A stretch of DNA of 64,000 nt from Octopus vulgaris (lineage: Eukaryota): contig OX597823.1 in assembly GCA_951406725.2 (NCBI GenBank), positions 2,046,001-2,110,000 on the forward strand, in the 5' to 3' direction. The notes under the pieces are model-generated. The model was not told the DNA's origin, did no database searches, and saw only the letters and a list, made by a program, of their open reading frames with translations. Both the position numbers and the translations under genes were made by a program. Positions 4,441 to 4,934 of this stretch are shown here, in pieces (within the stretch, counting starts at the first letter, position 1; each line of letters starts with the position of its first letter).

Positions 4441-4633
4441 GGTTTAAGTAATTGAGATTCGAGTGAATTCTAATGAATTCACATGAATATGGTCCTTAAC
4501 TAGGATGCACCGGAAATCTATATGGTGTTAACCACACGACAAGTGGGGTGATTACAAATAGGAAAAAAGCAACAAGAATGGATTAAAATCTCGGTATCTA
4601 CCCCTTTTGATGTTTGGGAATCTCTGATGTTTT

Positions 4634-4719
4634 TTCGGCTGACGAGTACGAGCCATCTATATTTACTGCATTTTTTGTAGCTTATTAAAGATGTCCTCGT
4701 ACGAAACAATTGTACCGAG
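4634..4719 (+). ncRNA. Type I hammerhead ribozyme motif, intact core
   Basis: ttcgg-CTGACGA-GTACGAG...CTCGTAC-GAAAC-aatt-GTA-ccgag. Stems I, II and III all pair; palindromic stem III ACAATTGT. Confidence 0.85.
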
Positions 4720-4934
4720 ATTTTAATCCATTCTTGTTGCTTTTTTCCTATATATATATATATATATTAAATATGAATTAGAGATAAAACCACTATTATG
4801 CAACTCAAACAATGATAGACATAAACCAATACATAAATAACAAATAATATATATTTTTATAAAACCTATAACTTATAACTAGATCTCAAAAACAATAAAA
4901 ATGAATGATCAATATATAATATAATAATTAAAAA

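Follow-up and report, generated by a model that had tools for sequence, protein, structure and literature searches.

The 64,000-nt stretch of Octopus vulgaris DNA analysed here (the window) carries, between two (TA)n runs, a unit of two head-to-head arms, the right one of which contains a hammerhead ribozyme motif (Table 1). A sequence-only reading of the window had pointed to a perfect inverted repeat of about 39 nt, with a right copy that begins inside the GUA triplet of the hammerhead and ends in (TA)n. Both observations hold: the repeat is perfect over 39 bp (4558-4596 and 4713-4751; fold z = -13.8), and its right copy starts at 4713 within GUA and runs to the (TA)n. The boundaries then given to the element, 4558 to 4751, have to be moved, since the left arm extends to 4440, where it meets a second (TA)n run; the true unit is 4440-4751, and the 39 bp are merely the overlap of two longer arms.

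Table 1. Features of the stub at 4440-4751 and its flanks (window positions; signed numbers are relative to the predicted hammerhead cut site)
Feature	Position	Strand	Basis
(TA)n run, left target flank	4391..4439	.	sequence
Left arm: 3' end of the element, inverted and 5'-truncated, to the family long end (+155)	4440..4596	-	96-98% identity to long ends
118-nt tail between short and long ends	4440..4557	-	genomic copies
Part of left arm overlapping right arm (left copy of the 39-bp repeat)	4558..4596	-	sequence
Inversion junction, 3-nt microhomology, single genomic copy	4594..4596	.	genome search
Right arm: 5'-truncated copy, -121 to +37, to the family short end	4594..4751	+	~40 copies, 97-99%
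Minimal type I hammerhead; predicted cut after 4714	4633..4720	+	dimer cofold, covariation, coupled palindrome change
(TA)n run, right target flank	4752..4767	.	sequence

Both arms have relatives elsewhere in the genome. The left arm, whose sequence is supported by the 40 best genomic matches, corresponds to the long ends of six other copies (L003, L005, L012, L013, L020 and L102). The right arm is found without the left repeat in about 40 best-matching genomic copies, which cover only positions 37-194 of the query; about half of those best matches do not stop at the short end but carry a further tail, which reads as 4440-4557 in reverse complement. The head-to-head junction occurs once in 2.8 Gb with one mismatch allowed. 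Its microhomology leaves four possible placements for the inner end of the left arm, the cut site among them; in its longest alignment the arm passes the predicted cut by 2 nt. The locus is 98-99% like its siblings and is a single young copy, built as many other stubs are. On its left, a Mariner-type transposase fragment (HTH_48, Transposase_1; 3524-4288, plus strand) belongs to an element that reaches about 4390 and is cut short, its end adjoining the (TA)n run that received the stub.

On sequence grounds, the arms are identified as the ends of a Penelope-like retroelement (PLE) with a reverse transcriptase (RT), a C-terminal GIY-YIG endonuclease and Hydra-clade motifs. A near full-length copy of the family (L198; 4.6 kb) contains an ORF of 1,107 codons with two stops, which matches the RVT_1 (E 0.0019) and GIY-YIG (E 0.0003) profiles, both below the Pfam cut-offs, with GIY-YIG in a C-terminal position. 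The DKG motif is changed to DKT, read as PADKTGN in two further copies (L098 and L100) and with a stop at that site in L198, and the RWK site reads RWR, as it also does for Hydra-1_Crog in the supplement of PMC8557442. A pattern scan of L198 and L091 found a CxCX5C linker together with CxxC and CxH around the conserved E and N, and simple patterns for CX2-5CxxC and CCHH had no match in these two copies. In four tandem copies (L102, L104, L107 and L114), the pseudo-LTR (pLTR) is laid out as hammerhead, short end, tail and long end, the sequence then continuing as far as the ATG of the ORF (+209). The arms of the stub are continuous with such pLTR-tail-ORF junctions in its relatives, which bears out the earlier comparison with inverted Penelope pseudo-LTRs. 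Directly before the ATG, L102, L104 and L107 have branch-point, pyrimidine and CAG-like sequence, which may represent the retained 5' intron known from PLEs.

The family shares with the Hydra-clade C-terminal EN+ PLEs, as described by Craig et al. 2021 (PMC8557442; for example Hydra-1_Obim and Hydra-1_Amil), the order of RT then GIY-YIG, the DKT motif, the CxCX5C linker, CxxC and CxH around E and N, a hammerhead near the 3' end and (TA)n targets; the order of motifs in the Hydra proteins of the supplement is similar by eye. It differs from the same descriptions in having RWR for RWK and another hammerhead sequence with a 43-nt loop 2. Hydra-clade elements are generally under 3 kb, a descriptive and not a diagnostic feature, whereas the octopus family reaches 4.6 kb with an ORF of ~1,100 codons; its extra length over the Hydra norm is made up of Asn-rich inserts and ~1.25 kb of 3' sequence. 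In the ORFs of L198, L096 and L091 (17% Asn), these long inserts lie between the RT thumb and the endonuclease and vary in length from copy to copy, and Asn-rich ORF inserts are likewise described for Adineta Penelopes (PMC3846280). Because of the difference in size, the family is filed only as a PLE with Hydra-clade motifs, assigned by those motifs rather than by an RT tree. The Naiad clade, which the (TA)n targets would suggest, is ruled out by the C-terminal endonuclease. Non-LTR retrozymes, defined in 10.64898/2026.07.22.740005 as direct tandem hammerhead repeats without an ORF, were also rejected, since the arms lie in inverted orientation and their sequence runs on into an RT ORF.

This link to an RT/GIY-YIG family, together with the single-copy junction, upholds the earlier proposal that the unit, MITE-like in appearance, is probably a retro-product. 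Short length, a perfect inverted repeat and TA flanks would be expected of a MITE, or of a foldback DNA transposon bounded by 39-bp terminal repeats; such an origin is, however, very hard to reconcile with a unique junction, with other copies that lack the left repeat, with arm and repeat lengths that differ from copy to copy, and with a sequence that is the end of an RT-bearing element, and we give it practically no weight.

Matches to an exact 20-mer lying just downstream of the cut site numbered 644 in the genome, and the first 100 listed were fetched (all of C1 and most of C2); a sample defined in this way leaves out arms that stop within or downstream of the 20-mer. The 3' ends of these first-listed arms fall at two fixed sites 118 nt apart, +37 (short) and about +155 (long) from the cut site: 55 were short and 43 long, one lay at the locus edge and was scored long in a separate check, and one ran into the ORF. 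A TA-type run follows 97 of the 100. Every head-to-head pair among these arms (26/26, of which 25 were scored in this set and one in the separate check, with one pair duplicating another) joined a short end to a long end. Across all fetched loci the same was true for 67 of 68 junctions (62 scored automatically, four by inspection and one from the separate check), the remaining one being complex; two of the four inspected junctions had a shortened or interrupted tail. Three pairs scored automatically as short-short were rejected as such when inspection found a tailed arm in each, and no short-short or long-long pair was present, after inspection, among the 68 junctions of the fetched loci. Independent pairing would predict about half to be short plus long.

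Together, these observations make it very probable that a Penelope-like retrotransposon that targets (TA)n left a single dead insertion at 4440-4751, consisting of two 5'-truncated copies of the element's end placed head to head and likely formed at insertion, when each of the cut DNA strands would have primed a copy. The strict pairing fits the two reverse-transcription start sites known in vitro from another Penelope element, the anole Poseidon PAc (Frangieh et al. 2024, PMC11167929). For PAc, both target strands are cut and extended in vitro, reverse transcription starts at two internal sites that bound the tail, and hammerhead mutants insert normally. In PAc, too, a tail lies between two fixed 3' ends, the hammerhead at the pLTR-ORF junction is upstream of both, and the targets are AT-rich; the PAc start sites lie inside an ORF that begins in stem II, whereas both ends of the octopus family are upstream of the ATG.

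By analogy, the protein of the octopus element would nick a (TA)n run on both strands; reverse transcription would start at +37 on one of them and at +155 on the other, with no need for RNA cleavage, and both copies would stop at random and be joined through a few bases of microhomology. At 4440-4751, the long copy would have stopped after ~157 nt, by chance at the hammerhead GUA. We infer the two-strand priming step from the pairing rule, and the mechanism is one that would be carried over from a Poseidon-clade element to a Hydra-type family; the pairing rule also has to speak for a single-event insertion, because no target-site duplication is readable inside the (TA)n that forms both flanks. 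In LINE-1 twin priming, both DNA ends prime a copy and leave a 5' inversion joined by microhomology; the octopus stub differs in that its arms would start at two fixed points of the RNA and overlap in what they copy. An alternative route to a head-to-head arrangement, proposed in PMC3846280, is self-priming on an antisense template. The layout itself agrees with the published PLE insertion unit (PMC3846280; PMC8557442, fig. 2 and its legend), which also has a 5'-truncated inverted copy beside the 5' end, a tail at one end only and microhomology joins. The tail in that unit is 30-40 bp, against 118 nt here; a further difference is that a target-site duplication is unreadable in the (TA)n targets of the octopus family.

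The earlier reading had attributed the inversion to the RNA end created by self-cleavage. As a rule for the family, RT would run off the 5' end of the cleaved RNA, and the inverted duplication would be built there. The left arm of the stub, whose inner end lies no more than 2 nt from the predicted cut, and a hammerhead conserved with compensatory changes are in keeping with such a rule. The breakpoints of other copies, however, are unrelated to the cut site, an outcome that the earlier reading had itself named as refuting its proposal. Among the 100 arms listed first of the 644, the 5' ends range from -18 to -4592 (median -219), and none lies within 17 nt of the cut. A second set was collected with a pattern catching arms broken within ~22 nt across the cut site (53 matches genome-wide); after removal of five internal indels it comprised 48 breaks, 37 of them inversions, with some insertions counted twice, once per arm. 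Breaks compatible with the cut made up 10 of the 48, against 8.7 expected from a flat profile (p = 0.37), and 9 of the 37 inversion breaks, against 6.7 (p = 0.22); without 4440-4751 itself the p values were 0.49 and 0.33, respectively. Only two of the 48 fell exactly at the cut, and six of the ten compatible breaks share one position, 2 nt past it. A control window in loop 2, scored from matches whose loci were not fetched and whose anchor total was uncounted, gave 57 matches, one of them by eye a deletion, and a break density of 2.15 per nt, compared with 2.09 per nt in the cut-site window.

Because the breakpoint profile is flat and the control window breaks equally, the cut site does not set the inversion point; and because the joins in other copies are scattered, the position of the stub's own join near the predicted cut is most likely due to chance. 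The 2 nt by which the left arm passes the cut would, moreover, be missing from the cleaved 3' product. With the normal insertion of the PAc hammerhead mutants in vitro also standing against it, we regard self-cleavage as a general determinant of the inversion as highly improbable. A minor route, in which a few per cent of arms, possibly including 4440-4751, are copied from cleaved RNA and masked by a random background, is slightly easier to entertain, and still unlikely. The stub's own breakpoint, which is compatible with the cut in one of its four placements, and the small excess of cut-compatible inversion breaks speak for it and count against two-strand priming with random stops; yet the excess is not significant, with or without the stub, and the cluster 2 nt past the cut involves a TA microhomology that is easy to find in AT-rich DNA. 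By an estimate that assumes 70% capture, at most ~14 of at least 644 arms (~2%) could be of this kind.

The hammerhead itself has a stem I of 6 bp (4633-4638/4715-4720), the core elements CUGACGA (4639-4645), GAAA (4703-4706) and GUA (4712-4714), a stem II of 7 bp with a long loop (4646-4652/4696-4702), and a stem III that is an 8-nt palindrome (4706-4713). The description of an intact hammerhead within the repeat thus stands as regards core and stems, with the qualification that stem III is only a palindrome and that the predicted fold is a dimer, two copies cofolding as a double hammerhead. Rfam did not detect the motif at this locus at its gathering threshold or at E up to 10, and the minus strand of the locus has no hammerhead core. 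In a chosen set of 11 family variants, pairing holds for 95.9% of 242 cells in the stems, and three pairs are changed on both sides; these sequences are related, so that the figure is not a probability and supports the fold without proving it. Two forms of the palindrome are common (43 and 18 of 69 distinct sequences); positions 4708 and 4711 change together between them, and both forms appear at near-equal depth in three sequencing runs. Contigs of four sequencing runs, some labelled as other organisms, hold the family and other fold-back joints; among the pieces listed, none spans the junction of the stub, which does not speak for its absence. No RNA run was among the holders listed, a result that carries no information on expression. 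In older subfamilies (L108-L130; ~78-91% identity at the ORF start), the hammerhead is kept through compensatory stem I changes. Two tiny insertions (L044 and L175) have inversions centred on the stem III palindrome, as if it had served as microhomology.

Minimal type I PLE hammerheads, for which a dimer design is described by Cervera and de la Pena 2014 (PMC4209133), likewise have a 7-bp stem II, a short stem I, a palindromic stem III and a predicted need for a dimer; the octopus motif differs from these descriptions in its long loop 2 with an inner hairpin and in its two palindrome variants with a coupled change. It had further been suggested that the left arm competes with stem I in RNA and could switch cleavage off. 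The predicted probability of stem I is 0.013 when the right arm is taken by itself and 0.03-0.09 in the context of the native tail, and it falls to 0.000 once the left arm is added; the predicted fold does block stem I, and the predicted monomer is mostly misfolded even when the left arm is left out. Because stem I pairing is already low without the arm and the junction is single-copy in the genome, the block is no regulatory design. A hairpin kept by selection, as an off-switch or as double-stranded RNA in a host transcript, could appeal to this predicted loss of stem I and to a T-box exon 44 kb distant. Selection is scarcely credible, however, for a single young copy this close to its siblings and built as so many stubs are, with no core on its minus strand.

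The remainder of the window contains further elements. A minimal type I hammerhead of different sequence (54874-54916, plus strand), with a T-rich tail that ends in (TA)n at ~55008, likely belongs to another PLE family. Two related hammerhead cores lie head to head at 55376 (minus strand) and 55715 (plus strand), ~340 nt apart, and probably represent a third family, in the form of an older inverted PLE stub; opposite-strand hammerhead pairs 100-700 bp apart have already been reported in PMC4209133. The T-box gene exon occupies 48649-49341 on the minus strand (best PDB matches Brachyury/T, E 2e-51), and a non-LTR retroelement fragment with a weak zf-RVT match is located at 63194-63895, also on the minus strand.

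The stub layout, the tail, the hammerhead type and the clade are already published. The passages on PLE insertion covered by the analysis state a one-sided tail; none of them counts how strictly short and long ends pair, and none gives a tail of 118 nt or more. As a locus, 4440-4751 is no more than a dead stub, whereas the census of its family adds two modest points on how Penelope-like elements insert. The rule of one short and one long end supports priming by both strands from a pair of fixed start sites, and the flat breakpoint profile is genomic evidence, in agreement with the in vitro result, that the hammerhead cut does not define the ends of copies. Head-to-head PLE stubs can also be mistaken for MITEs, which calls for caution. 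We lean, with moderate confidence, towards the view that every head-to-head insertion of this family draws on a single short and a single long start site, 118 nt apart, so that a dimeric Penelope protein would give each cut strand one fixed RNA start and copy the overlapping template twice; the Hydra-type family of the octopus would then offer a clean system for that geometry, and a genomic sign that hammerhead cleavage does not set the ends of insertions.
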